Source of the DNA: a virus
Virus record (IMG/VR): IMGVR_UViG_3300035494_000060
Location: 1 to 64,000 of that record
Length of the DNA stretch: 64,000 nucleotides
Strand: one strand, 5' to 3'
The notes beneath the pieces are model-generated. The model saw nothing but the letters and a program-made list of their open reading frames with translations, was not told the origin of the DNA and did not search any database. Positions 1,053-63,411 of the stretch are shown here, one piece after another. Position 1 is the stretch's first letter; every line of letters starts with the position of its first letter. A program made the position numbers and the translations under genes.

Positions 1053-3422
1053 TTAGCTCCAGGCGGGCAGGTTGTCGAGGTCAGGTTTTTCCAGCATGTC
1101 CGCCAAGTTTGGCCCCACTTCGTAGTCAACCTCAAACTTCAATTGCGGCTTCCACCCAAAATACTCGGTGATCGGCAGGTTCTCCATGATGCGCTGGACC
1201 TCGGGGACCCAGGTCTTCAGCTCGTCGATCTTGACGTAGGCTGTCAGGGCATCGTGGGTCATAAGGAAGAACTGGCAGCCCTCAGGCGTGCCGTGTTCCC
1301 GCTCAAACTCGGCCATGGCCAGCTGCGACAGGTCGGAGAGGGTCGACTGTACCGGGGAGTTCACGGCCTGCCGCTCCGCCTTCGACACGACATCGTAGAA
1401 GCTCGATGCCAGCTGTGGGAGGTGGCGGATGCGCCCCAACGGGGAGCGGATCATCTGGTGCTTCTTGGCGTAGCGTATTGAGTTCTCGTGCCACTTCGGC
1501 AGCATCGGGTACTCGTCGAAGAACGCCGCATGCTGGAACTCGGCCTCCTTCAGGCTGATGTGCACCCCATAGGTGTCTCGCGCATAGTTCTGGTAGCCCG
1601 CCGGCTGCATGCCGTAGATCAGGCCGAAGTTGCCGGCCTTCCCACCCTGGCGAATCTTCTTGATCAGTTTCTTGGCCGCCTCGTCGTCAGAGGCCTTCAT
1701 GGCCAGGGCCTGCTCCAGGGTGTAGCCGTTCAGCTTGGCGCCGGTGGCGAGGTGCAGGTCAATCTTCGCCTCGTACACCTCGATCATCCGGGTCTCGTTG
1801 GCGAGGCAGGCGGTAATGCGCAGCTCGCCCTGGGAGTAGTCCCAGTTCACGATCACGTAGCCCTCGGGGGCGTCATAGCACTCCCGCAGGCGGTGAGCCC
1901 AGGCGCTGTGCTTGGGGATGGTCTGCACGGCGGGGTCCTTGGCGGCGAGGCGCCCGGTCACGGTGCCGGATTCGCCCGAGTCGCCATAGTCGCCACGGTA
2001 CTGCACGTAAGTCGGGTGGAAGCGGCCGTCCGGGCACATGTGCGCCATGAAGCCATCGACGAAGGTCCCGAGGGTCTTGGTTGCCGAGTTGTAGCGCTTG
2101 AGGATGCCCATGAACTCCAGGGCCTCCGGCTCGTCTTCGAACATCTTCAGGTGATTCATGGCGGTGGAGGGCAGCCCATCCTTCGCCGTGACCATCTTCG
2201 GGGTGAGGTTGAGCCCATAGCCGGTGAACAGGAAGTCCCTGATCAGCGCCGCACGGGTCAGGGACAGGTTGTCCCGGTACTTGATGCGCAGCCGGCGCGG
2301 CATCATCGCCAGGGCTTCCTTCTCGGCGGCTGCGATCTCGGCCTTCAAGTCGCCGCGCAGAATCTCGACTTTCACCGGGTTAACGTGGATGCCCACGTGC
2401 TCCATGTTGTGGAACGCCAGGGTCGCCGGGTGCAGCAGCTTGACGTAGAAGGTCGCCAGCTTCTGGTCCTGCAACAGCTCCGAGGTCATGGAGTCGGCCA
2501 CCTGGTAGCAGGCATCGGTGTCGCCGCCCGCGTACTCCAGCAGGTCGTCATCCGGGATCAGGTCCATGCGGCCCTTGTCATACTTCTCGTTGAACTCCGC
2601 ATCATAGCCACCCATGTTGGTGCGCTGGTTGGCGTGCGCGGTCAGGCTGTTACTGCTGTTCTCGTCGAGCAGCGATCCGACCAGGGTGGTATCCATGCTG
2701 AAATTGGTGCACCGGATGCCCCACTTGTGGCGAATCCAGCGCAGGTCGTACTTGAAGTTCGCCCCCCGGACCTTGATGCGCGGGTGGGTCAAGAGCCATT
2801 CGATCTGTGAGTGCAATTGGTTGCACGGCTGGTCGTGCAAGCCCTTGAAGCGGATAGCGTCCGCCTGCCCAGGCTTGTAGGTGAAGCTGATGCTGACAAT
2901 GAACTTCTCGGGGTCAAAGGCATTGAGGCCGACCGTCTCCAAGTCACAGGTCAGGGTCACGGCCTTGGGGCTAGAGTCCAGGCGCTTCTTGATCCAGGCG
3001 ATCAGGTCGCTGAAGTCTGTAACCCAGCGGTAGTGCCCTGTCTGCGGGGCCAAGGTGCCGGTCTCATGCAGGCGCATGGCCAAGCGCAGGTCCCACTGGA
3101 TGTCGATCAGGCGGCCATAGTCCGTCCAGACCAGGGAGGCGTCGTAGCTCGCCAGGGTCCGGGCGGTCCCGGTGGGGTACTCGACCATGAAGACCTTCCC
3201 CCGGTTTGACCCCAGGGTGCTCTTCTTCCTGGCCAGCTTTTGCTCTTCCAGCAGCTCCAGTGCTGACTTGCCCGTGAGCAGCACGACATCCTTCTCGGCG
3301 TCCAGCTCGGGCAGGTGCCCAACAGACGCCACAAACTGGTGGCCCACCCCACTGCCACGCAGGACCGGCCCCCAAAACCGTTTGATGGCGTCCTGCTTGG
3401 ACTTCGTGATCACGTAGAGCAT
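1053..3422 (-). CDS. family A DNA polymerase with 3'-5' exonuclease domain
   Basis: ORF 1053..3467, start reset to ATG 3422 (MLYVITK) after GGAGGG. Exo I CDLETVGL, motif A DYSQGELRI, motif B RQGGKAGNFGLIYGM, motif C LMTHDAL. Confidence 0.9.
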   Translation of the reverse strand: MLYVITKSKQDAIKRFWGPVLRGSGVGHQFVASVGHLPELDAEKDVVLLTGKSALELLEEQKLARKKSTLGSNRGKVFMVEYPTGTARTLASYDASLVWTDYGRLIDIQWDLRLAMRLHETGTLAPQTGHYRWVTDFSDLIAWIKKRLDSSPKAVTLTCDLETVGLNAFDPEKFIVSISFTYKPGQADAIRFKGLHDQPCNQLHSQIEWLLTHPRIKVRGANFKYDLRWIRHKWGIRCTNFSMDTTLVGSLLDENSSNSLTAHANQRTNMGGYDAEFNEKYDKGRMDLIPDDDLLEYAGGDTDACYQVADSMTSELLQDQKLATFYVKLLHPATLAFHNMEHVGIHVNPVKVEILRGDLKAEIAAAEKEALAMMPRRLRIKYRDNLSLTRAALIRDFLFTGYGLNLTPKMVTAKDGLPSTAMNHLKMFEDEPEALEFMGILKRYNSATKTLGTFVDGFMAHMCPDGRFHPTYVQYRGDYGDSGESGTVTGRLAAKDPAVQTIPKHSAWAHRLRECYDAPEGYVIVNWDYSQGELRITACLANETRMIEVYEAKIDLHLATGAKLNGYTLEQALAMKASDDEAAKKLIKKIRQGGKAGNFGLIYGMQPAGYQNYARDTYGVHISLKEAEFQHAAFFDEYPMLPKWHENSIRYAKKHQMIRSPLGRIRHLPQLASSFYDVVSKAERQAVNSPVQSTLSDLSQLAMAEFEREHGTPEGCQFFLMTHDALTAYVKIDELKTWVPEVQRIMENLPITEYFGWKPQLKFEVDYEVGPNLADMLEKPDLDNLPAWS
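2812..2825. repeat. 14-bp palindrome copy (TGCAAT-N2-ATTGCA family)
   Basis: TGCAATTGGTTGCA inside the polymerase gene, read as C-N-Q-L-H. Confidence 0.9.
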
Positions 3423-3435
3423 TGTCCCCTCCATA

Positions 3436-3465
3436 CAACAAAAGGCCGCAGGTCTCCCGGCGGCC
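3436..3465 (-). terminator. intrinsic terminator or attenuator directly upstream of the polymerase RBS
   Basis: Minus strand GGCCGC-N10-GCGGCC followed by TTTTGTTGT, then ATGGAGGGGACAATG. Confidence 0.55.
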
Positions 3466-3485
3466 ATGGTGTCAAGCGTTGGTTA

Positions 3486-3938
3486 TCACAGCTGGCCCGC
3501 TAGGCCGTCGAGTTGTGCCCGTACCCATTTTGCATCCACCTGGTGGGAGGTGTACTTCGCCACCAGCATGGGGATGAAGTAGTCCTCGATGTTCTCCGGG
3601 GTGCACATGCCGCCGGCCTTCAGCACCGCGTCCGGTACGCGGTCGACGGACTCGCCCTTCTCGTAGTCGAGCACCAGCAGGGTAGCGCGTTTGTCATCAG
3701 CGATACAGAGCGCGAAGCCCAGGTTCGACGGCCCACGGAGCACCACAGCCGCAGCGGTGGAGTCCAGTCGGGAGTCCCATACGATGAACTTGATCGGGAT
3801 CGAAAGCCCCTCGGCCAGTTTCAGCTGCATCTTCACGTGGCCATCGAACTTCTCACCGTTGCAGCTGAGGGTGGTGGCCCCCAGCGTGTCCACGAGTGCG
3901 GTGGCAATCACCATGTTCTTGCTATTGGCGTTCGTCAT
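3486..3938 (-). CDS. hypothetical protein
   Basis: ORF-track 150 aa. Its ATG overlaps the upstream stop by 1 nt (TGATG). No motif recognised. Confidence 0.6.
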   Translation of the reverse strand: MTNANSKNMVIATALVDTLGATTLSCNGEKFDGHVKMQLKLAEGLSIPIKFIVWDSRLDSTAAAVVLRGPSNLGFALCIADDKRATLLVLDYEKGESVDRVPDAVLKAGGMCTPENIEDYFIPMLVAKYTSHQVDAKWVRAQLDGLAGQL

Positions 3939-7020: not shown

Positions 7021-7407
7021 GCGGTTTGTGCACGCGCACGGGCGGTTGACAGGGGTGTCACCGGCGCCGCCACAGGCGGGGCAACCCTCGCCATGGCAGG
7101 TCTGGCACTCCTCATACACGAGGAAGGTGCCGCGCCCCTCGCAGTGAGTGCAATTGGTTGCAATCACCCCCAGGCGGCGGGAGTCCTCCAGGGACCCGTC
7201 TACCACCCGCACGCCAATCGCCCTGAACCTGTGGGTCAGGTGGGCATGGGTGTAGGGCATGGCCCGGCGCAGAACCTCGTCGGTGGTCAGGAGCGGGTAC
7301 AGCTCCTCCACCAGGGCTTGCAGCTGGGCCTCGGCAGCGGGGGTCCTGCGGACATCACGCACGGTACGGCACCTCGTCACGGCGCACGTTGATGTGCTTC
7401 GGGACAT
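6997..7407 (-). CDS. DnaJ-type cysteine-rich (CxxCxGxG) zinc-finger protein
   Basis: Repeats CTHCEGRG, CQTCHGEG, CPACGGAG. Start uncertain: ATG 7407, or GTG 7362 four nt before the upstream TGA. Confidence 0.55.
   Translation of the reverse strand: MSRSTSTCAVTRCRTVRDVRRTPAAEAQLQALVEELYPLLTTDEVLRRAMPYTHAHLTHRFRAIGVRVVDGSLEDSRRLGVIATNCTHCEGRGTFLVYEECQTCHGEGCPACGGAGDTPVNRPCACTNRLTNTAGP
7149..7162. repeat. 14-bp palindrome copy
   Basis: TGCAATTGGTTGCA inside 6997..7407, read as A-T-N-C-T. Confidence 0.9.
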
Positions 7408-8075: not shown

Positions 8076-9908
8076 TCACCCGAGCAGGCCCTCCAGCGCC
8101 TCGTCAAGGTGAATGGCTGGCAGGGCAATGCTTTTGGACACTAGCCCCGCCTTTTGCAATTGCGCCAGGACATGCGGGCCCCCGAGCGCATTGTAAACAT
8201 AACTTTGTGCAATCACACCCTCCACCGATGCACTTAATTGCAATAGCTCCCCCAGGTTCGTCGGGGTGATGACCGCCTGCGCGCCCCCCGCGTACTGGTT
8301 GAACATGCCTATGAGGAACTCCCCCTCCTTCGTGAGGCCATGGGCCTCCGGCATCAGCCCATGCCCCGAGTCGGGGTCGTCCCAGCAACTGGTGACGGAC
8401 TGGAACACGTCTTCGAAGGGGGTGCCCTTGGCAATGACGCAGCCCGGGTGCCCGATCCCATCCCCCTTGGCGGCCTTCAGCATGCCCATCAGGACGTCCA
8501 GGCCCGCAGCGGTCTCCAGCTCGGGGTGGCCCATGTAGACGGCCCCGGTCAGACCATCGACGGTGATCTTCTGGCCCGCCGGGATGCCGGTCACGCCCGC
8601 GCAGCCGACCACGCAGGTCTTGTCCATGCCCCGGGCCACCACGGCGGCGTGGCAGGTAATCCCACCTGTGCTGGTGAGGATCGCCACGGACTTGACCATC
8701 ATCGGGAAGTCATCCGGGGAGGTTTCGTCCGCAATCAGGATGCCCTGGCCCTGCGCCGCCTCCAGCTGCTGCATGTTGAAACAGGCGATGCCGTGCACGG
8801 CCCCACCTCCCGCCGCCAGGCCGGTGAAGTCGGCCTTCGCGGACCCGGCCACGGTCGATACGCTGAGGCTCGGCACGATGCTCAGGGGGATGCGCTTGAG
8901 GGCGGCCTGTAGCGACAGGCGCCCGGCCTTCCACAGGTCCTGCGCGATGACCACGTGAGCGGTGGCGGTGCGCTTGGCCGTGCGGGTCTGGAGCACGTAG
9001 AGCTTGCCGGATTCGATGGTGAACTCGACGTCCTGGGCATCGTTGAAGTGCTCCTCCAGGGCCACGGCCAAATCAAGCACCTGCTCGTACAGGGCGGTGT
9101 CCAGGGTCTCCAGGTTCTTCGGGGTGACGGCCCCGGACACCACGTCCTCGCCCTGGCCGCACACCACGTACTCCCCCACCATCTTGTTCTCCCCGGTGGC
9201 TGGGTCGCGGGTGAACATGACACCGGAGGCCGACTTCTCGTCCCGGTTGCCGAACACCATCTTCTGGATGACCACGGCGGTGCCCCAGTTGTCCGGGATG
9301 TTGTGCTTGGCCCGGTACACGCGGGCGCGCTCGGAGTTCCAGCTGTCAAACACAGCCCGGATCGCCTGGGATACCTGCGCCAGAATCGAGTTGGGGAACG
9401 GGCCCGCCAACTGTTCGAACAGGTCTCGGTGGTGCTCGTACCGGCCCATGGCGTCCAGGTCTTCGCAGTGGTAGTCCTCCTTGGCGTGGCCGCGCACGGT
9501 GACGCCGAACATTTCGATCAGGCGGCCCCAGCTGTCGTAGGCGGCCTCCTTGCCGATGGCGTTGGCCAAGTGCCCGATGGTCTGCTCGGTGATGCCCACG
9601 TTCAGGATCGTGTCCATCATGCCGGGCATGCTGACCCGCGCGCCGGAGCGTACTGACACGCACGGGTTGGACTGGGTGAACAGCACCCCGTCGCTCTTGT
9701 CCAGGGCTTCTTGCGCCAGGGCTTGGCAGTAGTGGGCCCGGTTGGTCGAGTCCAGCTTCAGGTAGTCGACGCAGCATTGCGTGGGGATGATGATGGCCTC
9801 GGGCACTGGCAGCTTGAGGTCCTGGGACATGACAGCAAGGCCATAGCCCTTCCCGCCCAGGTGCTCCTTGGTCATCAGTTTGTCGGGGATTTCGTTGAGC
9901 AGGTACAT
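8076..9908 (-). CDS. PPDK/PEP-synthase-like dikinase (ATP-grasp plus phosphohistidine swivel domain) lacking the PEP/pyruvate TIM-barrel
   Basis: ORF 8076..9923, start reset to ATG 9908. GGKGYGLAVM nucleotide-binding motif, RTAKRTA, swivel motif GGITCHAAVVARGMDKTCVVG. About 610 aa, versus about 870 aa for PPDK. C-terminal ~150 aa unassigned. Confidence 0.8.
   Translation of the reverse strand: MYLLNEIPDKLMTKEHLGGKGYGLAVMSQDLKLPVPEAIIIPTQCCVDYLKLDSTNRAHYCQALAQEALDKSDGVLFTQSNPCVSVRSGARVSMPGMMDTILNVGITEQTIGHLANAIGKEAAYDSWGRLIEMFGVTVRGHAKEDYHCEDLDAMGRYEHHRDLFEQLAGPFPNSILAQVSQAIRAVFDSWNSERARVYRAKHNIPDNWGTAVVIQKMVFGNRDEKSASGVMFTRDPATGENKMVGEYVVCGQGEDVVSGAVTPKNLETLDTALYEQVLDLAVALEEHFNDAQDVEFTIESGKLYVLQTRTAKRTATAHVVIAQDLWKAGRLSLQAALKRIPLSIVPSLSVSTVAGSAKADFTGLAAGGGAVHGIACFNMQQLEAAQGQGILIADETSPDDFPMMVKSVAILTSTGGITCHAAVVARGMDKTCVVGCAGVTGIPAGQKITVDGLTGAVYMGHPELETAAGLDVLMGMLKAAKGDGIGHPGCVIAKGTPFEDVFQSVTSCWDDPDSGHGLMPEAHGLTKEGEFLIGMFNQYAGGAQAVITPTNLGELLQLSASVEGVIAQSYVYNALGGPHVLAQLQKAGLVSKSIALPAIHLDEALEGLLG
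8229..8242. repeat. 14-bp palindrome copy
   Basis: TGCACTTAATTGCA inside the dikinase gene, read as L-Q-L-S-A. Confidence 0.9.
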
Positions 9909-10447: not shown

Positions 10448-10725
10448 AGCTTGATCACTCGGGCCTCCAGGGCCTTCAGTTTCTGACGGTGGGCGATTGC
10501 GACGGCCTTCCCCGACGCCCCCATGCGAGTCATGGCATCCACGACTCCCGACCATCCTGACATCGCGTCCAGGGTGAGCCGGTTGGCCTGGGCCATGCGC
10601 TCGTCACGTTCGACGGAGCCCATGTCCAAGCCTACGCGGTAGGCGGCGGATAGGGCGTCAGTGGGTGATATGGACCCCTGCTCCAGCTGTTGCAGCAGGT
10701 CTTCGAGATACGGATGCGACACCAT
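10438..10725 (-). CDS. hypothetical protein
   Basis: ORF-track 95 aa. GGGAG lies before ATG 10725. Overlaps the 3' end of the XRE gene by 68 nt. Confidence 0.5.
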   Translation of the reverse strand: MVSHPYLEDLLQQLEQGSISPTDALSAAYRVGLDMGSVERDERMAQANRLTLDAMSGWSGVVDAMTRMGASGKAVAIAHRQKLKALEARVIKLWQ

Positions 10726-10960
10726 GCTTCTCCCAGGTGAGGCGGTAGCCCAGGGCTTCCGCTACTCGGCAGATGGTGTCGAGTCGGGGATTCTTGACCT
10801 TGCCCGAGGCCCACCCATTGAGTGTGGACGCCGACACTTTAGCCGTTTCTGCGAGGTCCGTCCGCTGGTGCGCGTGGGTCTTTTCGATGTCGCGTAGCAC
10901 GAGGTCCATCAGGTCCTGCTGGCTGGCGGTGCGCTCGTGGTTCTGGCGAGTGTTGGTCAT
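10658..10960 (-). CDS. XRE/Cro-type helix-turn-helix regulator
   Basis: ORF 10658..10975, start reset to ATG 10960 after CATGGAGGG. HTH stretch DLAETAKVSASTLNGWASGK. Confidence 0.7.
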   Translation of the reverse strand: MTNTRQNHERTASQQDLMDLVLRDIEKTHAHQRTDLAETAKVSASTLNGWASGKVKNPRLDTICRVAEALGYRLTWEKHGVASVSRRPAATAGAGVHITH

Positions 10961-11327: not shown

Positions 11328-11341
11328 TGCAATTGGTTGCA
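11328..11341. repeat. 14-bp palindrome copy
   Basis: TGCAATTGGTTGCA, 5 bp upstream of the P4 -35. Confidence 0.9.
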
Positions 11342-11343
11342 AT

Positions 11344-11715
11344 CTATTCGGTGTGCCAGCCCGTGACTTCGCCCCGGGCGTCGGTGAACAGGTGACTGAA
11401 GAGTTCGGCCTTCTGCACCAGGGAAAGTTCCATCCATGTGGCCGCTGGGATCAGGAACGCCAGCCTCCCGTCTCCGGTGCCGCCCAGCTCGGGGGTGACC
11501 TTCACGTGTCGGCCAAGCTCGGCTTTCCCCGCCAGGGAGGCTGCCGCCGGGCTGTCCATCACCGTGGTGTACATGGGCTGGGTCTTGCCACAGTCGATGC
11601 ACTCCCGCACGCGCGGGCCATAGTAGTTGACCCAGGTGTGCTTGCCATCATTGGCATTCGGACAGGCGAACTTTCGCAGGGGAATGCAATTAGCTGCAAC
11701 GGCGCTCAGGTCCAT
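11344..11715 (-). CDS. hypothetical protein (Cys-containing)
   Basis: ORF 11344..11814, start reset to ATG 11715 after AGGAG. Confidence 0.55.
   Translation of the reverse strand: MDLSAVAANCIPLRKFACPNANDGKHTWVNYYGPRVRECIDCGKTQPMYTTVMDSPAAASLAGKAELGRHVKVTPELGGTGDGRLAFLIPAATWMELSLVQKAELFSHLFTDARGEVTGWHTE
11685..11698. repeat. 14-bp palindrome copy
   Basis: TGCAATTAGCTGCA inside 11344..11715. Confidence 0.9.
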
Positions 11716-14031: not shown

Positions 14032-14204
14032 GCGGTTCGTGCAATTGATTGCACAGGGCGGGATGCCCGTTCGGCCTCCTTGAATGCGTCATCGAGCAGC
14101 TTGGTCAGGTAGGCCTCGTCGATCACGACGCCAGCCCGACTTTGCTGTAGCAGGTGGTGGATCACCGGCGCCCCGCGTACTTTCTGCTTTGGGTCCAACG
14201 TCAT
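14028..14204 (-). CDS. hypothetical small protein (58 aa, below the ORF-track cutoff)
   Basis: Hand-translated MTLDPKQKVRGAPV...SIARTA. ATGA overlap with the upstream stop. Its own TGA stop lies inside the P6 -35. Confidence 0.45.
   Translation of the reverse strand: MTLDPKQKVRGAPVIHHLLQQSRAGVVIDEAYLTKLLDDAFKEAERASRPVQSIARTA
14040..14053. repeat. 14-bp palindrome copy
   Basis: TGCAATTGATTGCA (perfect arms), 8 bp upstream of the P6 -35. Confidence 0.9.
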
Positions 14205-15747: not shown

Positions 15748-15761
15748 TGCAATTAAGTGCA
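15748..15761. repeat. 14-bp palindrome copy
   Basis: TGCAATTAAGTGCA, 8 bp upstream of the P7 -35. Confidence 0.9.
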
Positions 15762-17030: not shown

Positions 17031-17044
17031 TGCAGTTAATTGCA
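17031..17044. repeat. 14-bp palindrome copy
   Basis: TGCAGTTAATTGCA, 9 bp upstream of the P8 -35. Confidence 0.9.
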
Positions 17045-18475: not shown

Positions 18476-18489
18476 TGCAATTAGTTGCA
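18476..18489. repeat. 14-bp palindrome copy
   Basis: TGCAATTAGTTGCA, 9 bp upstream of the P9 -35. Confidence 0.9.
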
Positions 18490-41381: not shown

Positions 41382-41386
41382 TTACA
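41373..41386. repeat. 14-bp palindrome, one-mismatch copy
   Basis: TGCAATCAATTACA overlapping the candidate -35. Confidence 0.55.
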
Positions 41387-45511: not shown

Positions 45512-45525
45512 TGCAATTAGTTGCA
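45512..45525. repeat. 14-bp palindrome copy
   Basis: TGCAATTAGTTGCA, 9 bp upstream of the P21 -35. Contains the TAA stop of the RuvC-like gene. Confidence 0.9.
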
Positions 45526-49287: not shown

Positions 49288-49301
49288 GGGGTGGGTTCCT
49301 T

Positions 49302-50711
49302 TCAGATAGTGATTTTCTTCACCGGCGCCTGCTTGGATTTGTAGAACTTCATGCGCTGGTTGTGAAAGCCCGTCAGTACCGTGGAATCCCGATCTACTAG
49401 GTCTATGACTGTCGGGTCCTTCTTGCCCTCGTAGGGCCTCAGAATGCGCCCGACAACCTGCAACACGTCCGACTTCGGACTCACCAGCACCGCTGTATCG
49501 AACCAGGGGAGGTTCACGGCTTCGCTGGTCATCTGGTACGTGGTGCAGAGGACCGTCTTCTCTGCTGCCTCCTGGCGTGCCGCCTCCTTCATCCCGCCGG
49601 TGAGGTAGCCAACCTCCCCAGCCCCCAACACCTTGGCTATCTCGGCCCCCACGGCCTTCATGTAGTCCAGGGTGGTGAAGAACAGGATGATCCTGCGCCC
49701 GCGCTCGGCGGATATGCAGGTCAGCTTGACCGCGATCTGCGTCCGCCCGTGGCACTTGATCATGCCCTTCTCAAGCATGACGGTGCGCCCGTGCGGAGGT
49801 TCGACCTTGGTCAGTTTCTTCTCCTTGGTCAGCTTGTTGACCACCAGCCGGCGCGGCAGCTTGTACGGGGTGTCGACCGCCAGCACCTTGAATGGCAGCG
49901 GCATTGCCTCGGACTTCACCAGTGTCGGCCCGATGAACATCTTGAACAGCCGCTCGCGGCGATCCTTGCGCTCGGGGCGCGCTGACAGGCCGATCATGCT
50001 GCGGCAGCTGAGGTTCCACATGACCTGGGTGAAGTAGTCGGAGCCCAGGCGGTGCACCTCGTCGAAGATGGCCAGCCCGAACGCTTCATAGACCCAGGAC
50101 GGATACCGGCCCGGCTTGCATAGCGACTGGAGCATGGCGATCACGACTGGCCTACCCTGCACGTTGCACTTGTCGCCCTGTATCAGGCCGATGTCTGTGC
50201 GGTGCAGGCCGAGCACGACCTCCATGGCCTCGACCCATTGCCCGATGATCATTTCCTTGTTGACCACGATCAGGGTGGAACGTTTGCAATTAAGTGCAAT
50301 CGCGGACCCGACATAGGTCTTACCGAAGCCGGTCGGGGCCTCGATGATGTGGTTCCTGCCGGCCAGGAGCAGGGAGGTGCTCTCGTCAACCACGCGCTGC
50401 TGCTCGGCGTCCTTGGCCTTGAACGTGCCCCCGAACTGCACCGGGATGCCCCGACTACGGCGGTCGTCATCACAGGGCGGCACGGCAGCGGGCGGGACGT
50501 AGATCAACCCCTCCTCGCGCCGGTAGGCCTGGTAGAACTTGTCGTCGTCCTCCGCACCCGGGTCAGCGAACATGTTCTTGAAGGTGAGCGCCTTGGCCAG
50601 CGCCGGGCTGTACTTGTAGGCCGCGCCCAGGTCGATGAACAGGGGCGGCTCGTGGGTGATAAGGGAGGGGGCTTTCACCCCGCCCCCCTGCTTCGCGTGC
50701 TTAAAGATCAT
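49302..50711 (-). CDS. SF2 DEAD/DEAH-box helicase
   Basis: ORF 49302..50915, start reset to ATG 50711. Motif I APTGFGKT, motif II FDEVH, motif III GLSARP. Confidence 0.8.
   Translation of the reverse strand: MIFKHAKQGGGVKAPSLITHEPPLFIDLGAAYKYSPALAKALTFKNMFADPGAEDDDKFYQAYRREEGLIYVPPAAVPPCDDDRRSRGIPVQFGGTFKAKDAEQQRVVDESTSLLLAGRNHIIEAPTGFGKTYVGSAIALNCKRSTLIVVNKEMIIGQWVEAMEVVLGLHRTDIGLIQGDKCNVQGRPVVIAMLQSLCKPGRYPSWVYEAFGLAIFDEVHRLGSDYFTQVMWNLSCRSMIGLSARPERKDRRERLFKMFIGPTLVKSEAMPLPFKVLAVDTPYKLPRRLVVNKLTKEKKLTKVEPPHGRTVMLEKGMIKCHGRTQIAVKLTCISAERGRRIILFFTTLDYMKAVGAEIAKVLGAGEVGYLTGGMKEAARQEAAEKTVLCTTYQMTSEAVNLPWFDTAVLVSPKSDVLQVVGRILRPYEGKKDPTVIDLVDRDSTVLTGFHNQRMKFYKSKQAPVKKITI
50285..50298. repeat. 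14-bp palindrome copy
   Basis: TGCAATTAAGTGCA inside the helicase gene, read as I-A-L-N-C-K. Confidence 0.9.
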
Positions 50712-53214: not shown

Positions 53215-54474
53215 TCACAGGAATTGCAGCTCCTCGATCTTGTTCTCGTCGTACTCGTCGAAGTTCATGGTGAGGAAGTCCCAGTTCATCAGGAACTCCC
53301 CGACTTCGCCGTTCCGGCCCTTGAGGATCGAGCACTTGCGGCGGATGGCCGTCTCGATGCCCTCGTGCTCCAGCAGGCCCAGCACCACGGTGGACACCTG
53401 GCCGATGACGTCCGAATAGCCGATGTCCTCCAGGCCGGGGTCACCCTCGCCCTTCTTCTTCGACTTCTTCGCGGCTTCCCGGTTGAACTGCCAGGAGGTG
53501 GCGACCGGGATGTTCAGCAGACCGGCAAGGTCGGACTTGAAGGCCTCGGCGTTCTCGGCCACGCGGTCGTACTTGTTGATCTTGCTGTTCGGGTGGCGCA
53601 CCAGGTAGGCACCGTCGATCACGATGAACTGCGGCTCCAGCTGTTGAGCCAGCATCATGATGTCGTCCACCGTGGCGGTCAGGTTCCCGTCGACCACGTA
53701 CAGGCTCGACTCGGCAGCCTCCAGGGCCATCATGCTCTCGGTGAACTGCTTGAGGCCCTTGCTGGTAAGCTCGGCGTTCTTCAGGTTGGTCAGCGACTTG
53801 TGGGTGTGCATAGCGGCCAGACGTTGAAGGATCGGCAACGGCTTCATTTCCATCGACACGAACAGGCCGGTCTTGTTCTGGTAGAACGCTTGCAGGGCCA
53901 TCCTCAGCATCATGAAGGTCTTACCCAGTGCCGGGCGCCCGACTACGGATATGACATCGCCGCCGAGCATGCCCCCCATCATCTGGTCCAGGGAGCCCCA
54001 GCCGGTCAGGATGCCGTAGTCATCGCCCTGAGTCAGCTTCTCCTTGTAGGCCTGGAGCAGGGGCGCCGCCGATTCCTTGAAGTCCACGATGTTGAGACCG
54101 CTGGCGCTGGTGGTGATCCGCGACACCGTGCGCTTCAGCTCCTCGAACGCGGCCAGAGGGTCCAGGCCGGACTTGTTCATCAGGGGCTTGACCTCGGCAA
54201 TCGAGGCGGCCAGTTCCCGGTGAATCCAGCGCTTGCGCAACTCCTCGATGTAGTAGCCCGAGACCTCGGTGGCCTTGGGCAGGCTCTCCCCGTGCCAGCC
54301 CTCGACCATGGCGCGTGACGGCAGGCCCCCGAACTTCCTCAGGTGCTGGATAGCCCGCTCGTACAGCTCACGCTCTAGTGGATCAAAATGCTCGGGGTTC
54401 AGTGTGGTCCCCAACAGTCCCTTCACGCTTCCGCTATCAATAACGGATGCAATTAACTGCAATCCAATGCTCAC
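53215..54474 (-). CDS. dnaB: replicative DnaB-family helicase
   Basis: GTG start. Walker A VVGRPALGKT, Walker B FIVIDGAYL, plus a DnaB-like N-terminal domain. Confidence 0.9.
   Translation of the reverse strand: MSIGLQLIASVIDSGSVKGLLGTTLNPEHFDPLERELYERAIQHLRKFGGLPSRAMVEGWHGESLPKATEVSGYYIEELRKRWIHRELAASIAEVKPLMNKSGLDPLAAFEELKRTVSRITTSASGLNIVDFKESAAPLLQAYKEKLTQGDDYGILTGWGSLDQMMGGMLGGDVISVVGRPALGKTFMMLRMALQAFYQNKTGLFVSMEMKPLPILQRLAAMHTHKSLTNLKNAELTSKGLKQFTESMMALEAAESSLYVVDGNLTATVDDIMMLAQQLEPQFIVIDGAYLVRHPNSKINKYDRVAENAEAFKSDLAGLLNIPVATSWQFNREAAKKSKKKGEGDPGLEDIGYSDVIGQVSTVVLGLLEHEGIETAIRRKCSILKGRNGEVGEFLMNWDFLTMNFDEYDENKIEELQFL
54448..54461. repeat. 14-bp palindrome copy
   Basis: TGCAATTAACTGCA in dnaB codons 5-9, read as L-Q-L-I-A. 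Confidence 0.9.
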
Positions 54475-55118: not shown

Positions 55119-56255
55119 TCAGGGCTTGCCTGACAAGTTGTTCAGGAGCGCTTCCAGCTCCTCGACGGTGGCGATCCCCCCGGACGCCTGTGTGGCCGCT
55201 GTGGCCGCTTTCTCGGGTGCAGGAAGGCCCTGGGATGGCTTGGCCGCGTCGAACGTCTTCAGGGGCACGCTCGGGGCCTTCTCCAGGGACTTCTGGTACA
55301 GGTTGGTCAGGGCCTCGATGTTCTTCAGCACGAACCCCACACTCGGGACTGAAGGCACCGGGAACACACCGAAGGTGGATTCCAGCTTGGCCTTGACCGC
55401 TGACCAGTGCTCCAGCGCATAGGTCAGAACCGGCTCAGCCAGGCCCGCCGGGGTCCGCTTGATCACGTGCCGGAGCTGTCCAAGCTGGGCGGTGGTGAGC
55501 GGGGCCACGAATGACACGGCTGTGAAGTTGGCGAGCAGAAGTTCCCGCCACTTGTCGGCTAAGGCTGTGACACCTTTCGGCGCCGAAGGTTTCTTGTGCC
55601 CAGTCGACCCAGTGGCCTTGAACGCGGCCAGCTTCTCTTCAACGGTCGGCATAGTGAGGTTCCCCGTGCAATTAAGTTCAATCTGCTGGACGGCGGAAGT
55701 CAGGACGACTGCCCCCAGTTCGGCCAGGGCATCTTCCTTTCGACGGCCCCTAGTCTTCCTCCGCTCCCCGAAGGAGTTCTCCGAATCCACCCCTGAAATC
55801 TCGCTGATGGAATCAGCTCGTATAGCTCTGTCAGGATCAATAACCGGATCAAAAGCAGGATTGGGTGAAATGGGTTGCACCCCCCCACTGCAATGGGTTG
55901 CATCCCCCCCATGCAATGGGTTGCAGGGGTCCCCCTCCAAACCCAGGTCCTTTTCGACCTCGCGGTTGAGCAGGAAAGTATTGATCTGACCCTGAGCGGC
56001 GACCCGGCGAACAAGGCCTTTGTCCTCCAGGGCGGACAGGTGGTAACGGATCATGCGCGGGGTGAGGCCGACCATCTTGGCCAGCTTCCCGATGGAAACG
56101 CGGGAGGAGTCTGCTTGCTTGTAGGCATAGTTGGCGATGGCGACAAGCACCAGTTTTTGGACTGGCGGCAAGGCAGCCGTCTCCAAAGCCCAGGATATGG
56201 CTTGGATACTCAAACGGGTGGCCCCCGGAATGTGGTTGGACAGAAAAAGCCCCAC
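55119..56255 (-). CDS. replication-initiator-like winged-helix protein
   Basis: N-terminal LSIQAISWALETAALPPVQKLVLVAIANYA...VSIGKLAKMVGLTPRMIRYHLSALEDKGLV (HTH_36/DnaD-like pattern). Iterons lie inside the gene. Confidence 0.6.
   Translation of the reverse strand: MGLFLSNHIPGATRLSIQAISWALETAALPPVQKLVLVAIANYAYKQADSSRVSIGKLAKMVGLTPRMIRYHLSALEDKGLVRRVAAQGQINTFLLNREVEKDLGLEGDPCNPLHGGDATHCSGGVQPISPNPAFDPVIDPDRAIRADSISEISGVDSENSFGERRKTRGRRKEDALAELGAVVLTSAVQQIELNCTGNLTMPTVEEKLAAFKATGSTGHKKPSAPKGVTALADKWRELLLANFTAVSFVAPLTTAQLGQLRHVIKRTPAGLAEPVLTYALEHWSAVKAKLESTFGVFPVPSVPSVGFVLKNIEALTNLYQKSLEKAPSVPLKTFDAAKPSQGLPAPEKAATAATQASGGIATVEELEALLNNLSGKP
55667..55680. repeat. 14-bp palindrome, one-mismatch copy
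   Basis: TGCAATTAAGTTCA inside the initiator-like gene. Confidence 0.55.
55889..55902. repeat. 14-bp palindrome copy (iteron 2)
   Basis: TGCAATGGGTTGCA. Confidence 0.85.
55912..55925. repeat. 14-bp palindrome copy (iteron 3)
   Basis: TGCAATGGGTTGCA. Confidence 0.85.
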
Positions 56256-58095: not shown

Positions 58096-58109
58096 TGCAA
58101 TTGGTTGCA
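58096..58109. repeat. 14-bp palindrome copy
   Basis: TGCAATTGGTTGCA in the ~90-nt 5' leader between P25 and the AAA+ start. Confidence 0.9.
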
Positions 58110-60589: not shown

Positions 60590-60603
60590 TGCAGTTAAGT
60601 GCA
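60590..60603. repeat. 14-bp palindrome copy (variant)
   Basis: TGCAGTTAAGTGCA abutting the terminator. Confidence 0.75.
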
Positions 60604-61936: not shown

Positions 61937-63016
61937 TCAGGCGCGTGGGAACGCTTCGGATGGTGGGGTGAAGGCTTCCGTATACCGGGCCACGCCCTTA
62001 GTCAAGCGGAACTCGTCTATATGCCCTGTCAGGTAGCGCATGTTACGGGGGTGCCCACCCAAAGATAGATGGGTCTGATCATAGGACACAGCATCGGCGG
62101 TAAGACTAGCCTCTAGTACACCATCCACGAACAGACGCACCACACCCCCGGTTCTGGTAACTGCTAAATGGTAGTACCGCCCGGTTTCCACCACAGTAGT
62201 CCCAGATAGAGTGCCCTCTTTGGCAATCGCAATCAGGGTCCCCGATACGGAGATAGCTAGTGTTAGGTCTAGCGTCAACAGAGTCCCATCTAATTCACCA
62301 TGCAGAGCCAGGATGACCCGGTTGAAGTCAGTGGTTGGGATGGTAGTGACATTAACGAAGACCTCAGCTGTGTAATCCCCCACCCCAAATGCCAGCGATG
62401 GATCAGAGCCTGTAATACGATCCCCACCACTGGCTGCGAATGCCCCTGCCCCGAACTTAGGAGTCGAAGACATCGAATTGGTGGACCCGGTTAGGGACGG
62501 CCCCACGTCAAGGGCTAGAGGTGTCGAGTCAAACCCGGCCAGCGCCACTACCGTGCTGAAAGGGGGCTCACCAACCGGCCCTGGCACGGGGTCTGGCGTG
62601 GATTCTGGGGTGCCCATCGTTAGGTAGTCCACTCGGATGCCAAGTCCGGTGCCCGCGCCTGCAATCAGTTGCACGTCGAAGGCGGTCTCAGCCGGAAACT
62701 CGGGCAGGGCGGACAGGTCCACGACCTCGCCCTCGGTAGCCCCAGCGGCCACGGTCGGATGCGCAATGCCATTGGCGGCCAAGATGTCGGCCCCGTCGAC
62801 GATCAGGGTGGCCTTGTATTCGGTGCTCACAGGTTCGTCAGCCCATACACGCAGGGCGGTCAGCTTGATCGGATGGCCAGTGATGCGAGGCACGTCACTC
62901 GTGAACGGTACTACCGCCCCATCCTGAAAGTAGTAGAAGGAGTCAGGCTTAGGGCCCGAGCTTCCACCCGAACCGCCGGAGCCGCCTGCTTGGCCCGGCC
63001 TGTAAATCTTTACCAT
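61937..63016 (-). CDS. tail fibre / receptor-binding protein with C-terminal LamG-like lectin domain
   Basis: Gly-rich N-terminus. C-terminal YYHLAVTRTGGVVRLFVDGV...LTGHIDEFRLTKGVARY fits the concanavalin/LamG pattern. Confidence 0.6.
   Translation of the reverse strand: MVKIYRPGQAGGSGGSGGSSGPKPDSFYYFQDGAVVPFTSDVPRITGHPIKLTALRVWADEPVSTEYKATLIVDGADILAANGIAHPTVAAGATEGEVVDLSALPEFPAETAFDVQLIAGAGTGLGIRVDYLTMGTPESTPDPVPGPVGEPPFSTVVALAGFDSTPLALDVGPSLTGSTNSMSSTPKFGAGAFAASGGDRITGSDPSLAFGVGDYTAEVFVNVTTIPTTDFNRVILALHGELDGTLLTLDLTLAISVSGTLIAIAKEGTLSGTTVVETGRYYHLAVTRTGGVVRLFVDGVLEASLTADAVSYDQTHLSLGGHPRNMRYLTGHIDEFRLTKGVARYTEAFTPPSEAFPRA
62660..62673. repeat. 14-bp palindrome copy
   Basis: TGCAATCAGTTGCA inside the tail-fibre gene, read as V-Q-L-I-A. 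Confidence 0.9.
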
Positions 63017-63021
63017 GGGGA

Positions 63022-63351
63022 TTACTCCTGAGTGAATACGCGGGCGCCGGCTGCGAGGCCGATCACCTTGACGAAGTTGTACGGGATGGCGAACTCGACC
63101 AAGGCCTGGGTCTCGGAGGCGGTGTCGATTGTCTGGTAGTCGAGCCAGTCAGCGTCGCTATGCAGCTTGACCTGCACGATGACGCCCGCCATTGCAGGGG
63201 TCAGGCCGGTGAGGGACACGGCGTATGGCGCGCTGGCCACACCACTCTCGGTGGCATCGGCGCCTTGGCGGGCCGGGGTCAGGGCTTGATCGTAGATGCA
63301 GAACGCTCGGCGCTGCATCGACAGGCTGGATTGGATCACGTTCGCAGACAT
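63022..63351 (-). CDS. hypothetical structural protein
   Basis: ORF 63022..63402, start reset to ATG 63351 (MSANVIQ). Confidence 0.5.
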   Translation of the reverse strand: MSANVIQSSLSMQRRAFCIYDQALTPARQGADATESGVASAPYAVSLTGLTPAMAGVIVQVKLHSDADWLDYQTIDTASETQALVEFAIPYNFVKVIGLAAGARVFTQE

Positions 63352-63397
63352 GGCTGTAGGCCTCTCGGTGGGTGTACCGGAAAGCCTACAACTACCG

Positions 63398-63411
63398 TGC
63401 AATTAACGTCA
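63398..63411. repeat. 14-bp palindrome, one-mismatch copy
   Basis: TGCAATTAACGTCA. Contains the stop of 63409..63645. Confidence 0.5.

Follow-up and report, generated by a model that had tools for sequence, protein, structure and literature searches.

The window, which is the whole 64-kb stretch of viral DNA that was analysed, has a GC content of 61-65% (an earlier note on this sequence had put it above 60% by eye) and contains 42 exact matches to TGCA-N6-TGCA, compared with 1.76 ± 1.30 (maximum 5) in 100 dinucleotide-preserving shuffles. Forty of these belong to a single motif family, (G/T)TGCA-A-Y-Y-R-A-T-TGCA-C; the other two, at 16757 (TGCATGGCGGTGCA) and 24264 (TGCACGGTCTTGCA), are GC-rich at the centre and seem to be chance occurrences. 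In all, 4-5 further sites differ from the family by a single base, and a PWM scan locates near sites at 41373, 55667, 55866, and 63398 as well as weaker ones at 45877 and 52358. The earlier note's total of about 44 sites is thus upheld once the PWM near sites are added, but its count of 40 exact sites becomes 42, two of them probably fortuitous. The family is oriented relative to the coding strand: 20 sites combine C at position 6 and A at position 9, against 2 with the mirror arrangement (binomial P about 1e-4). Another 7 sites are present in tail genes within the 10 kb past the right edge of the window (locus L149, from the same phage). The sites, listed without strand, and the genes of the candidate binding proteins are as follows.

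2812..2825: site TGCAACCAATTGCA (coding strand), within the DNA polymerase I gene
7149..7162: site within CDS 6997-7407
8229..8242: site within the dikinase-like gene 8076-9923
11328..11341: site 5 bp upstream of a -35 (TTGACG at 11322, minus strand)
11685..11698: site near the start of a small CDS, about 20 nt past the ATG
14040..14053: site, -35 (14031) 8 bp downstream
15748..15761: site immediately past a stop codon, -35 (15739) 8 bp downstream
17031..17044: site, -35 (17021) 9 bp downstream
18476..18489: site, -35 (18466) 9 bp downstream
18822..18835: site within a small CDS
22077..22090: site, -35 (22068) 8 bp downstream
22900..22913: site, -35 (22879) 20 bp downstream
24236..24249: site within a CDS; the adjoining 24264 match is probably chance
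26507..26520: site, -35 (26499) 7 bp downstream
27425..27438: site within a CDS
28233..28246: site, -35 (28222) 10 bp downstream
30084..30097: site, -35 (30075) 8 bp downstream
31277..31290: site at the 3' end of the preceding gene, immediately before RBS and ATG
33555..33568: site, -35 (33546) 8 bp downstream
33648..33661: TGCAACTGAATGCA, a weaker variant, with site 33555 lying 80 bp downstream
34872..34885: site, -35 (34861) 10 bp downstream
35291..35304: intergenic site, preceded by a stop codon and followed by RBS and ATG
35657..35670: site just past a terminator-like hairpin, -35 (35648) 8 bp downstream
35700..35713: site immediately past the PIG-L stop codon, upstream of the hairpin that precedes site 35657
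38251..38264: site in the terminase large-subunit gene, at its 5' end
38975..39799, minus strand: ParB_N protein with a KorB/Noc/ParB-like fold, second candidate binder or partner
39128..39141: site within the ParB-like gene
39814..39827: site, ParB-like start codon 15 bp downstream
39868..39881: site, ParB-like start codon 69 bp downstream
41373..41386: one-mismatch site TGTAATTGATTGCA (coding strand), intergenic, from the PWM scan
41968..41981: site within the WbqC-like gene
43281..43294: site within the methyltransferase-like gene
44563..45429, minus strand: p288, whose N-terminal tail is rich in Lys/Ala and whose all-alpha core (YRKAxYLI, GWTKLK) is conserved, leading candidate binder
45512..45525: site in the promoter of the p288 gene, -35 (45502) 9 bp downstream
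46663..46676: site within CDS 46068-46991
48922..49290, minus strand: small MerR/Xis-type HTH protein, conserved directly past the SF2 helicase gene, third candidate binder
50285..50298: site within the SF2 helicase gene
54448..54461: site at the extreme 5' end of the DnaB-like gene
55119..56255, minus strand: lambda-O-like replication initiator (wHTH), candidate binder
55667..55680: one-mismatch site within the initiator-like gene, from the PWM scan
55866..55925: three copies in tandem, repeating every 23 bp (TGCAACCCATTGCA twice, TGCAACCCATTTCA once), in the initiator-like gene
58096..58109: site in the AAA+ gene leader, about 30 nt before the start codon
58556..58569: site within the small CDS 58284-58610
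60590..60603: site immediately past a stop codon, terminator-like hairpin downstream
62660..62673: site within the tail gene 61937-63016
63398..63411: near site TGCAATTAACGTCA, from the PWM scan

The window has 26 conserved σ70-type promoters on the coding strand versus 3 on the opposite strand, with the consensus TTGAC[AG]AA-N17-GAGAAT/GAGACT; a promoter scan gave 6 promoter-like sites versus 1.2 in shuffles. A palindrome lies upstream of the -35 in 14 of the 26, at a distance of 5-10 bp except for one at 20 bp, which is the number reported previously; the other 12 have no site. Because the gap before the -35 ranges between 5 and 10 bp, the sites fall on different faces of the helix and are a poor match to those of a classical activator. 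Many sites are placed exactly between a stop codon and the following promoter or RBS, and those at 35700 and 35657 bracket a GC hairpin plus T-run, as expected from the earlier description of two sites flanking a terminator. At 35657, and in the related phage PG28, intergenic sites follow a terminator-like hairpin and precede the next -35, a position where the DNA is probably little transcribed.

The sites are under purifying selection at the DNA level. Within CDSs there are 26, compared with 5.2 ± 1.4 (maximum 9) after synonymous-codon shuffling and 0.64 under a codon-order shuffling null, and they use all three phases (7/13/6). Between PG28 and VH2_2019, 21 of 22 sites, including those in genes, are retained at orthologous positions, with identities of 98% in the arms, 94% in the centre, and 82% in the flanks; over long evolutionary distances site positions turn over, and density is maintained. 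The earlier note had argued that the constraint acts on the DNA rather than on the proteins, and had named codon-preserving nulls and conservation between related phages as checks; both results, together with the use of all three phases, bear this out. Compensatory pairs at positions 5/10 are absent from the window and from PG28, and one-sided changes are frequent. Since the half-sites vary independently and are never compensated, a hairpin is unlikely. The best reading of the palindrome is a binding site for a dimeric protein, as its shape had already suggested.

The palindrome array is clade-wide, being common to a large phage family with many hosts and genomes of 80-110 kb. Among cultured phages, the core GCAAT-N2-ATTGC occurs about every 2-3 kb in PG28 and DLP3 (34 sites in 82.7 kb and 35 in 96.9 kb, each versus about 1.3 expected from base composition for the same pattern), VH2_2019 (21 in 50 kb), KarBoss (6 in 25 kb), RHph_TM16 (7 in 25 kb), and the Vibrio phage ValSw4_1 (9 core sites in 24.5 kb). 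An identical core is shared by phages infecting Vibrio, Stenotrophomonas, and Rhizobium and by phages whose hosts are unknown, over a GC range of 40-64%. Dozens of IMG/VR contigs carry either this core or the lineage variants TGACAT, TGAAAT, GGCAAT, and TGCAGA, which were seen in 80 p288-centred loci; a palindrome-plus-promoter cassette was found in 55 IMG/VR stretches. Phage L338C has 11 copies of TGCAAC-N2-GTTGCA in 25 kb. VHS1 (2 sites in 40 kb) and SIO-2 (5 in 32 kb) have few sites, though both encode p288 and the MerR-like protein. No description of such an element was found in the literature, as far as it could be searched.

Site spacing is much more regular than chance. In the window a palindrome is found roughly every 1.6 kb, and the coefficient of variation of the spacing is 0.39 in PG28, 0.48 in DLP3, and 0.60 in the window plus L149 (P<=0.0002 for each). 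For 95% of the genome the nearest site is no more than about 1.6-2.0 kb away, and sites are present in all functional modules, tail genes included. The majority of the 35 DLP3 sites are deep within genes, structural genes among them, yet are regularly spaced. This regularity, the clade-wide presence, and the restriction of sites to only 14 of 26 promoters are points absent from the earlier note.

That note had named four possible binders, of which the protein at 44563..45429, p288, is the best and is now the leading candidate to bind the palindromes. It is found in all relatives examined, and in at least 10 phages a site and promoter lie directly upstream of its gene, with a phage-specific palindrome variant in each: at 45512 in the window, 6177 in PG28, 46771 in DLP3, and 3456 in L008, and also in L085, L098, L130 (TGAAAT type), L135, L338C (TGCAAC type), and L079. 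Its sequence weakly resembles the PF49 partition proteins of Borrelia (E 0.003, which does not reach the family cut-off), as well as DUF3102 and ParB-like viral models; a search of the PDB with its model gave no significant fold match. Its putative recognition helix (YRKAxYLI) is unchanged in phages with TGACAT, TGAAAT, and TGCAGA palindromes.

The ParB_N assignment of the protein at 38975..39799 holds. Its two-domain fold has as its best Foldseek match the KorB-KorA-DNA complex 8qa9 (E 1.7e-8), and its top matches are KorB-DNA, Noc-DNA, and ParB-CTP structures; its nucleotide-binding box is GGHHR, not the canonical GERRxR. However, it is dispensable for the motif: ValSw4_1 lacks the orthologue and still has its 9 core sites, and many IMG/VR relatives without an orthologue upstream of TerL have 0.3-0.8 sites per kb. 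The MerR-like protein is conserved clade-wide, and its HTH is highly variable among phages with the same palindrome. The remaining two earlier candidates are also weakened: motif-sharing relatives do not conserve the initiator's N-terminal wHTH, and no conservation was found for the XRE regulator (10658..10960). No phage protein convincingly co-varies with the motif variants.

Taken together, these observations lead us to favour, tentatively, a reading in which the palindromes form a genome-wide array of sites for a phage-encoded, sequence-specific, dimeric DNA-binding protein that both controls promoters and coats or organises the chromosome. The sites next to promoters, whose centres lie at about -47 to -53 (in one case near -63), would allow the protein to control the many promoters of the small-gene region (11-36 kb) and that of the binder's own gene, most likely by repression or timed shut-off. 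The regularly spaced in-gene sites may serve as nucleation or loading points from which binding, spreading, or bridging would extend over the whole chromosome. The likeliest binder would be the universal protein at 44563-45429, with the ParB/KorB-fold protein at 38975-39799 as an accessory partner carried by only some lineages. By analogy, the arrangement resembles those of RK2 KorB/OB and Noc/NBS. The RK2 comparison had been drawn before, and the layout (sites at the -35, near promoters, and in many cases promoter-distant) fits it, as does the KorB-like fold of the window's ParB-family protein.

An ordinary operator network, in which a repressor or activator of the classical HTH kind, such as an immunity repressor or the MerR-like protein, uses only the promoter-proximal and intercistronic sites and the in-gene sites are roadblocks or incidental, is unlikely. 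Such a network, comparable to the P1 C1 operators, phiC31 CIRs, or L5 stoperators, would suit the fixed short distance of sites from 14 of 26 promoters, the many sites lying exactly between a stop codon and a promoter or RBS, and the clade-wide conservation of a MerR-type HTH protein; in addition, stoperators follow a one-orientation rule, which the 20:2 orientation bias recalls. It does not fit the evenly spaced sites deep within DLP3 genes, the retention of in-gene sites between PG28 and VH2_2019, or an HTH that varies widely while the palindrome stays the same. Furthermore, immunity repressors tend to diverge quickly, but the core is constant over hosts and lifestyles.

Targeting of DNA modification is improbable. 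Here the ParB-fold protein would dock at the palindromes and recruit the adjacent ~500-aa glycosyltransferase together with WbqC, methyltransferase, PIG-L, and sugar-nucleotide enzymes; because the complex would modify processively for 1-2 kb on either side, evenly spaced sites would be needed, as is seen. The ParB-like gene is always flanked by the glycosyltransferase-like gene on one side and the terS-like and TerL genes on the other, and the order glycosyltransferase, (small gene), ParB-like, terS-like, TerL is kept in the window, L005, L008, PG28, DLP3, and RHph_TM16. DLP3 DNA is refractory to 15 of 15 restriction enzymes tested and thus is modified in an unknown way (PMC7326821), and phage ParB-fold domains are frequently fused to DNA methyltransferases (PMC12704722). 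However, motif density is normal in phages without the ParB-like orthologue, and SIO-2-type genomes such as ValSw4_1 keep the motif at such a density without the entire module. The Arthrobacter phage KellEzio has the glycosyltransferase-ParB pair but no TGCA-type motif, and the DLP3 authors suggest that the glycosyltransferase may act on protein or LPS (PMC7326821). The tight placement of sites beside the -35 would also be left unexplained.

We consider it very doubtful that the sites are dispersed centromeres for plasmid-prophage maintenance, bound by a ParB-type protein in the way that N15 uses four scattered SopB sites. In favour, DLP5 has been obtained as a phagemid and lysogens of DLP3 are stable (PMC7326821), each genome has two ParB-domain proteins, and p288 weakly resembles PF49 proteins. 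Against this, a non-exhaustive scan of the proteins revealed no ParA-type partner, 35-50 evenly spaced sites are far above what partition requires, PG28 and V-YDF132 are characterised as lytic, and promoter-adjacent placement is not accounted for.

There is still less to recommend a conserved host protein (a nucleoid-associated protein or global regulator of Proteobacteria) that the phage recruits or titrates. The identity of the core across hosts and base compositions, and the failure of any phage protein to co-vary convincingly with the variants, would be expected of such a protein, but sister lineages with distinct variants (TGACAT, TGAAAT, GGCAAT, TGCAGA, TGCAAC) fit a phage-evolved binder. 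A literature search by palindrome sequence yielded nothing relevant, and we know of no host operator consensus that matches it.

The tandem copies at 55866, 55889, and 55912 lie at about codons 110-130 of the initiator-like gene, with G-runs between them; the 23-bp spacing is as first described, and the first copy has one mismatch. The array resembles the lambda ori iterons. Bacterial Okazaki fragments are similar in length to the 1.6-2.8 kb site spacing, and a palindrome is usable on either strand; nevertheless, a replication role for the palindromes, as secondary initiator sites or as priming or helicase-loading points at about Okazaki-fragment spacing, is the least probable of the readings, given the unconserved DNA-binding domain of the initiator, the lack of an iteron-like cluster in PG28 and DLP3, the absence of the compensatory changes expected of a single-strand hairpin signal, and the fact that trinucleotides suffice for known primases. 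If the palindromes are instead sites for a phage-encoded dimeric protein, the tandem copies would represent a lambda-type origin that reuses the palindrome sequence family, and the initiator is probably a binder of this iteron subset only.

The 14-bp palindrome TGCA-N6-TGCA is found 42 times in the window by a regular-expression search of its 64 kb, as against 1.76 +/- 1.30 occurrences (maximum 5) in dinucleotide-preserving shuffles; the GC content of this DNA is 61-65%. The figure of about 40 exact sites in the earlier note is thus borne out, and 40 of the 42 form one family. (The matches at 16757 and 24264, whose centres are GC-rich, are probably chance hits.) With a weight matrix, further copies that have one mismatch are picked up at 41373, 55667, 55866, and 63398. 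Nearly all genes of the window are on the minus strand, and on the coding strand the sites give the consensus (G/T)TGCA-A-Y-Y-R-A-T-TGCA-C, an imperfect 16-bp palindrome (GTGCAATTAATTGCAC in its 16-mer form). On the coding strand the sites are biased in orientation, 20 having C6 together with A9 and 2 having the mirror form; in the cultured relative PG28, both orientations of the asymmetric forms are present. In the window it is nearly always the 5' arm, as read on the coding strand, that is the imperfect one (TGCAAC). Sites with a single perfect arm are the commonest kind, with 22 of the 34 PG28 sites combining one TGCAAT arm with one TGCAGT or TGCACT arm, and at the orthologous site PG28 21639 the imperfect arm is on the opposite side in the related phage VH2_2019.

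When the sites are located with a rough gene map of the window, 26 lie wholly within coding sequences, in all three phases (7/13/6), and about 16 are intergenic, even though only about 12% of the DNA is non-coding. Shuffling of synonymous codons leaves 5.2 +/- 1.4 sites within coding sequences (maximum 9), and shuffling of codon order leaves 0.64. Because codon shuffles leave far fewer sites than the 26 observed, the constraint is on the DNA, as had been claimed from the reading of the motif in different frames.

Several kinds of element might be under such a constraint. A mobile repeat of the MITE or REP type is rejected, since the flanks are not conserved past one base per side (bias beyond the 14-mer is seen only at position 0, G/T, and position 15, C); the in-gene copies, which are in frame with their host genes in all three phases, also count against insertions. 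A restriction-modification target, or the avoidance of one, is rejected because TGCA outside the motif is present at its expected frequency (254 versus 248 expected in the window extended by the overlapping metagenomic locus L149; 358 versus 351 in the Stenotrophomonas phage DLP3). The third possibility, a DNA or RNA hairpin serving as terminator, cruciform, or single-strand signal, predicts compensatory changes in the arms. However, positions 5 and 10 are complementary in only 20 of 40 window sites and 10 of 34 PG28 sites, and the deviations are all one-sided (G.T, A.C), with no compensatory G-C or C-G. Since the half-sites vary independently, a dimeric protein that tolerates one weaker half-site is favoured over a hairpin, and the sequence pattern argues for the palindrome as a candidate site for such a protein. 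The intergenic copies in PG28, like that at window position 35657, have a terminator-like hairpin on one side and the next -35 element on the other, in DNA that is probably little transcribed.

A conserved σ70-type promoter, TTGAC[AG]AA followed after about 17 bp by GAGAAT, GAGACT, or GATACT, is present 26 times on the coding strand of the window and 3 times on the other. At 14 of the 26, a palindrome ends 5-10 bp upstream of the -35 element (20 bp in one case). Thirteen of these 14 promoters are in the small-gene region at 11-36 kb, and the other precedes gene 44563-45429. Because the remaining 12 promoters have no palindrome, the element is an optional promoter-adjacent module and not a part of the promoter itself. 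The usual intergenic order is stop codon, palindrome, and -35 element; sites 35700 and 35657 lie on either side of a terminator-like hairpin. In relatives the palindrome is again found just upstream of TTGACAAA-type promoters, often past a terminator hairpin, and also within genes of every module. A promoter scan of 26-36.5 kb gave 6 promoter-like sites versus 1.2 in shuffles. The 26 near-identical promoters, of the form ccaccgc-TTGACGAAC-N17-GAGAAT/GAGACT, span 5100-58209, all on the minus strand; many have terminator-like hairpins upstream, and the small-gene region at 10-36 kb has an unusually dense multi-promoter layout.

The phage is essentially uncharacterised, since the nearest TerL relatives are 99% identical (on a 3.4-kb contig) and then 76%, with others down to 50%. 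A megablast search with 25 kb of the window against deposited phage records found no near-identical relative. (The window belongs to a contig of 85,432 bp, JGI/Logan, with 100% identity for proteins P0121 and P0241.) In TerL and PolA the phage shares about 50% identity with SIO-2/VHS1/PG28-type Vibrio siphophages, Stenotrophomonas phages DLP3 and DLP5, Rhizobium phage RHph_TM16, and Rhodobacter phage RcZahn, and the palindrome is present far above expectation across this clade.

Copies of the palindrome or its lineage variants in related phages, with the number expected
PG28: 34 sites in 82.7 kb; expected 1.25
DLP3: 35 sites in 96.9 kb, 25 of them perfect TGCAAT-N2-ATTGCA; expected 1.3
VH2_2019: 21 sites in 50 kb; expected 0.76
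KarBoss: 6 sites in 25 kb; expected 0.37
RHph_TM16: 7 sites in 25 kb; expected 0.35
RcZahn: 7 sites in 40 kb; expected 0.49
ValSw4_1: 9 sites of the form GCAA-N4-TTGC, outer base variable, in 24.5 kb; expected 0.36
L338C: 11 sites of the form TGCAAC-N2-GTTGCA in 25 kb; expected <0.01

The core common to the relatives is GCAAT-N2-ATTGC. A cassette of palindrome and promoter, TGCAATYRATTGCA-N3-14-TTGACAAA, is found in 55 stretches of IMG/VR DNA; these come from about 35 contigs, of which many measure 90-120 kb. In addition, 80 loci centred on homologues of p288, the product of gene 44563-45429, carry the family or lineage variants of it (TGACAT-, TGAAAT-, GGCAAT-, TGCAGA-, and TGCAAC-N2; TGCAA-N5; mixed arms). 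Searches of the literature by sequence and by phage name found no description of the element, the one for SIO-2 leading only to an unrelated paper on ValSw3-3; the string 'palindrom' is absent from the published accounts of DLP3 and RcZahn, and 'palindrom', 'promoter', and 'motif' from that of PG28.

The copies are spaced much more evenly than by chance. Inter-site gaps have a coefficient of variation (CV) of 0.39 in PG28, where none is shorter than 695 bp or longer than 4.5 kb (P<5e-5), and of 0.48 in DLP3 (P<5e-5). L149, which is the same phage and runs on for 10 kb to the right of the window, brings in 7 more sites, all of them in tail genes; the resulting 49 sites in 74 kb have a CV of 0.60 (P 0.0002), computed after merging clusters closer than 150 bp. 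In each genome 95% of the DNA lies within 1.6-2.0 kb of a site. Between PG28 and VH2_2019, 21 of 22 sites are kept, with identities of 98% in the arms, 94% in the centre, and 82% in the flanks. Over longer evolutionary distances positions are not kept: the site in the dikinase gene is at codon ~560 in the window, ~77 in PG28, and ~375 in DLP3. Selection is on coverage, not on any given position. Site orientation with respect to replichore in PG28, judged by eye, is not significant. The dikinase gene itself (8076-9923; pyruvate, phosphate dikinase-like, TIGR01828 E 6e-125, truncated relative to the 865-position model) is kept throughout the clade beside tyrosine-phosphatase-like genes. Two of the three indel breakpoints between PG28 and VH2_2019, which are ~80% identical, lie 60-100 bp downstream of a palindrome (PG28 31552/31654 and 45152/45214; VH2_2019 31684/31786 and 44578/44641). 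This could reflect exchange of gene cassettes at the sites, a comparison confounded by the preference of both indels and sites for intergenic DNA.

Among the proteins that the window shares with PG28 and DLP3, three might bind DNA. As a candidate binder, p288 ranks first, the ParB-like protein second, and the MerR-like protein third; these are listed together with the initiator.

38975-39799, minus strand, ParB-like (ParB_N) protein
44563-45429, minus strand, p288
48922-49290, minus strand, MerR-like protein
55119-56255, minus strand, lambda-O-like wHTH initiator

Every relative examined encodes p288, and so do 46 phage records. The protein combines a Lys/Ala-rich tail with an all-alpha core, modelled with confidence, in which YRKAxYLI and GWTKLK are invariant. 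In at least 10 phages a palindrome and promoter cassette, with the palindrome in that phage's own variant, lies directly upstream of the p288 gene, the pattern expected of an autoregulated DNA-binding protein. Searches of the PDB gave no significant fold match and no sequence match, and p288 has no profile similarity to the ParB-like family; there is a sub-threshold match to Borrelia PF49 partition proteins, and the model has weak structural similarity to DUF3102 and to ParB-like viral models. Two observations count against p288: its invariant helix is unchanged where the motif differs, and in VHS1 and SIO-2 the protein is present with few sites.

The ParB-family protein at 38975-39799 had been put forward earlier as a possible binder. 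Its family assignment stands. It matches Pfam ParB_N (E 1.5e-9) and the profiles of ParB and Noc (E 1e-13 to 1e-8); its AF2 model (pLDDT 82.8) has as top Foldseek matches KorB 8qa9 (KorB-KorA-DNA), Noc 7ol9 (Noc-NBS), and ParB-nucleotide structures, with 190-229 columns aligned; and it has the two-domain order of the family, with the NTPase domain at the N-terminus and the helical DNA-binding domain after it. The canonical GERRxR CTP-binding box is replaced by GGHHR in the window, in DLP3, and in the metagenomic loci L005 and L008, and by DGEHR in PG28; other members of the ParB fold bind ATP or GTP (PMC12704722), so the phage protein may still bind a nucleotide. A palindrome lies in or beside the gene in 4 of 5 phages examined. 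However, only 22 phage records contain the orthologue, and the motif persists without it: ValSw4_1 lacks it and has 9 core sites in 24.5 kb, and many motif-rich IMG/VR loci have no orthologue upstream of TerL. These same cases contradict the idea that motif density tracks the presence of the ParB-like protein, which the motif-poor SIO-2 and VHS1 and the motif-rich PG28 and VH2_2019 would fit. Other ParB_N-fold proteins are present in almost every locus. In the orthologue from L005, a TGACAT-type phage, the helical domain has no distinctive change.

The third candidate, a MerR/Xis-type HTH protein, is kept just after the SF2 helicase gene, and its HTH varies widely within one motif class. Its gene, which is unannotated and overlaps longest-ORF calls, encodes a basic N-terminal region (WY..N....RY..DPEYR) followed by the HTH, and directly follows the helicase gene in PG28, DLP3, SIO-2, and most IMG/VR relatives. 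The terS-like proteins, compared for co-variation with the motif variants, are heterogeneous and not one family.

The initiator, which matches PHROG 'replication initiation O-like' families, had also been named as a possible binder. Its N-terminal domain is not conserved, so that it is rejected as the common binder and would at most bind a subset of sites within its own gene. That subset consists of three tandem copies at 55866-55925 with 23-bp spacing and G-run spacers, at codons ~110-130; the earlier report of three such copies is confirmed, the first being a one-mismatch copy. Tandem repeats at about two helical turns inside an O-like wHTH initiator gene are the pattern of lambda-type origin iterons, and the layout is the classic one for such an origin. 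As in lambda gene O, the window copies lie just after the wHTH-coding part; unlike lambda, where the dispersed copies have no counterpart, they make up only 3 of ~45 sites, and the other ~42 do not have the iteron pattern. Each iteron consists of the palindrome plus G-runs. Among relatives, what the initiators have in common is limited to the C-terminal ~100 aa, and the DNA-binding N-domains appear to have been swapped.

The closest known layouts are those of the KorB/OB, Noc/NBS, L5 stoperator, P1 C1/phiC31, and N15 SopB systems. The likeness to KorB/OB of RK2 (IncP) suggested in the earlier note holds for the fold and the layout of sites, but not for the CTP box or for obligatory co-occurrence. 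As with KorB, a single replicon carries many copies of one palindrome, directly upstream of -35 elements, near promoters, or far away (14 sites lie 5-20 bp upstream of a -35 element and ~26 are in coding sequences or far from promoters), and the same replicon encodes a ParB-fold protein whose best structural match is the KorB-KorA-DNA complex. OB, however, is TTTAGC(G/C)GCTAAA, a 13-bp site present in 12 copies, while the phage site differs in sequence and is present in 42-49 copies, evenly spaced and mostly in genes; the phage ParB-like protein has GGHHR for GERRxR and is dispensable for the motif in relatives, and no KorA-like partner was identified in the phage. Noc/NBS of Bacillus subtilis likewise has a 14-16 bp palindrome in many copies chromosome-wide and a ParB-family protein without a ParA partner; the PG28 homologue is annotated 'nucleoid occlusion protein', and 7ol9 is the third-ranked fold match. 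NBS nevertheless differs in sequence, Noc acts on cell division via membrane binding, whereas the phage protein has no obvious membrane-targeting helix, and Noc sites are not known to be promoter-associated, as the phage sites in part are.

The stoperators of L5 and other cluster A phages share the dozens of short-site copies genome-wide, in short intergenic spaces and in genes, and an orientation bias with respect to transcription (20:2 in the window, with both orientations of the asymmetric forms in PG28). Stoperators, however, are asymmetric, 13 bp long, and recognised by an immunity repressor that binds as a monomer, whereas the phage sites are near-palindromic, evenly spaced, and kept across many host genera. 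The P1 C1 operators and the phiC31 conserved inverted repeats provide many operators for one phage protein, often by early promoters, but they are essentially intergenic and promoter-linked, with no regular spacing reported and no conservation across distant hosts. The SopB sites of N15 are dispersed inverted repeats bound by a ParB-family protein that also influence phage promoters, and some members of the present clade are likewise plasmid prophages; but N15 has four sites and SopA (ParA), and here there are 35-50 sites. The site sequence also differs from the parS consensus TGTTNCACGTGAAACA, and no ParA family match was seen among 38 window proteins scanned. None of these systems matches in sequence, and none of them is known to combine 35-50 copies per ~85-100 kb, regular spacing, in-gene sites in all frames, and multi-order conservation. 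Since the comparison with the KorB family succeeds for fold and layout and fails for the CTP box and co-occurrence, and since none of the systems compared matches in sequence or is known to have this combination of features, the array is best classed as a dispersed operator or parS-like array, kin to the known kinds.

Taken together, these results show that an array of short near-palindromes is selected, evenly spaced, and genome-covering, and that about one third of its copies are placed where RNA polymerase at a strong σ70-type promoter could be affected. Such an array might work as KorB/OB or Noc/NBS do, with a phage-encoded dimer nucleating at the sites. The promoter-proximal copies, which are centred at about -47 to -53 on variable helix faces, would have as their most plausible effect the repression or timing of promoters, both those of the small-gene region and the binder's own. 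The remaining copies would extend occupancy genome-wide, and the even spacing would imply an action range of ~1.5-2 kb on each side of a site.

Other roles would involve the genes around the ParB-like protein. The ParB-like gene is always accompanied by a gene for a glycosyltransferase-like protein of ~500 aa, the two lying immediately upstream of the terS-like and TerL genes, and this pair is also present in Arthrobacter phage KellEzio. It belongs to a sugar-modification block.

Window, 35715-44551, sugar-modification block
PG28, 7711-13718, sugar-modification block
DLP3, 64670-71229, sugar-modification block
RHph_TM16, 71447-76596, sugar-modification block
KellEzio, 53346-55780, glycosyltransferase-(small ORF)-ParB pair

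Upstream of terS-like and TerL, the block consists of SWIM, methyltransferase, WbqC, and ~500-aa glycosyltransferase genes, with PIG-L just downstream of TerL; DLP3 and RHph_TM16 add epimerase and aminotransferase genes. It always ends with the ParB-like gene, the part that recurs in KellEzio is the glycosyltransferase-(small ORF)-ParB pair, and SIO-2-type phages lack the whole block. An unlikely reading is that the sites load a phage 'chromatin' clamp or bridging protein (p288 with or without the ParB-fold protein) every 1.5-3 kb, coating the chromosome; in lineages that have the glycosyltransferase-ParB module, a DNA-modifying enzyme would travel with this coat and hypermodify the whole genome processively, and the sites would double as early-promoter switches. 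If true, this would be a new principle, in which viral DNA carries loader sites in cis, at regular intervals, that label it as self, both for protection and for timing. It is quite unlikely that the sites are loading points for a DNA-modification machine; two findings support such a role, namely that the glycosyltransferase and ParB-like genes stay paired and that DLP3 DNA is reported to withstand 15 restriction enzymes (PMC7326821). That they are dispersed centromeres of a plasmid prophage is very improbable; the plasmid-prophage lifestyle of DLP5 (PMC7326821) points that way. A conserved host protein as the binder is likewise very improbable.

The dispersed operator or parS-like array is real and appears undescribed. 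If this reading is right, it is an overlooked conserved cis-element in a widespread group of 80-110 kb siphophages, whose hosts are Vibrio, Stenotrophomonas, Rhizobium, and Rhodobacter and which includes many uncultured environmental lineages as well as the phage-therapy candidates DLP3, PG28, and V-YDF132. The element would organise the whole genome and gate about half of the window promoters, and would thus offer a direct way into the timing of gene expression in these phages. The orphan phage ParB-fold proteins, whose roles are largely unexplored according to a 2025 survey (PMC12704722), may be explained in part by it, and it may be relevant to the resistance of DLP3 DNA to restriction, which is so far unexplained. 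A quantitative prediction of the range of the bound factor, roughly 1.5-2 kb, follows from the even spacing. Because hosts are available in culture, a direct test in cultured relatives is possible now.

Three further observations were made among the relatives. RcZahn is reported to be circularly permuted, which suggests headful packaging in the clade. The metagenomic locus L079 (IMGVR_UViG_3300025572_000001) has 29 copies of (T)GCAATTAATTGC(A) in 20.6 kb; within its 12.5-15.1 kb, a cluster of at least 5 such copies in ~450 bp (14641-15083) may be an origin or centromere-like array. Finally, L091 (IMGVR_UViG_2708742415_000004), a p288-bearing relative without the TGCA family, has a different 20-bp palindrome, CTGGATCG-N4-CGATCCAG, which lies within direct repeats of ~108 bp and ~263 bp (1430-1660 and 7413-7690).
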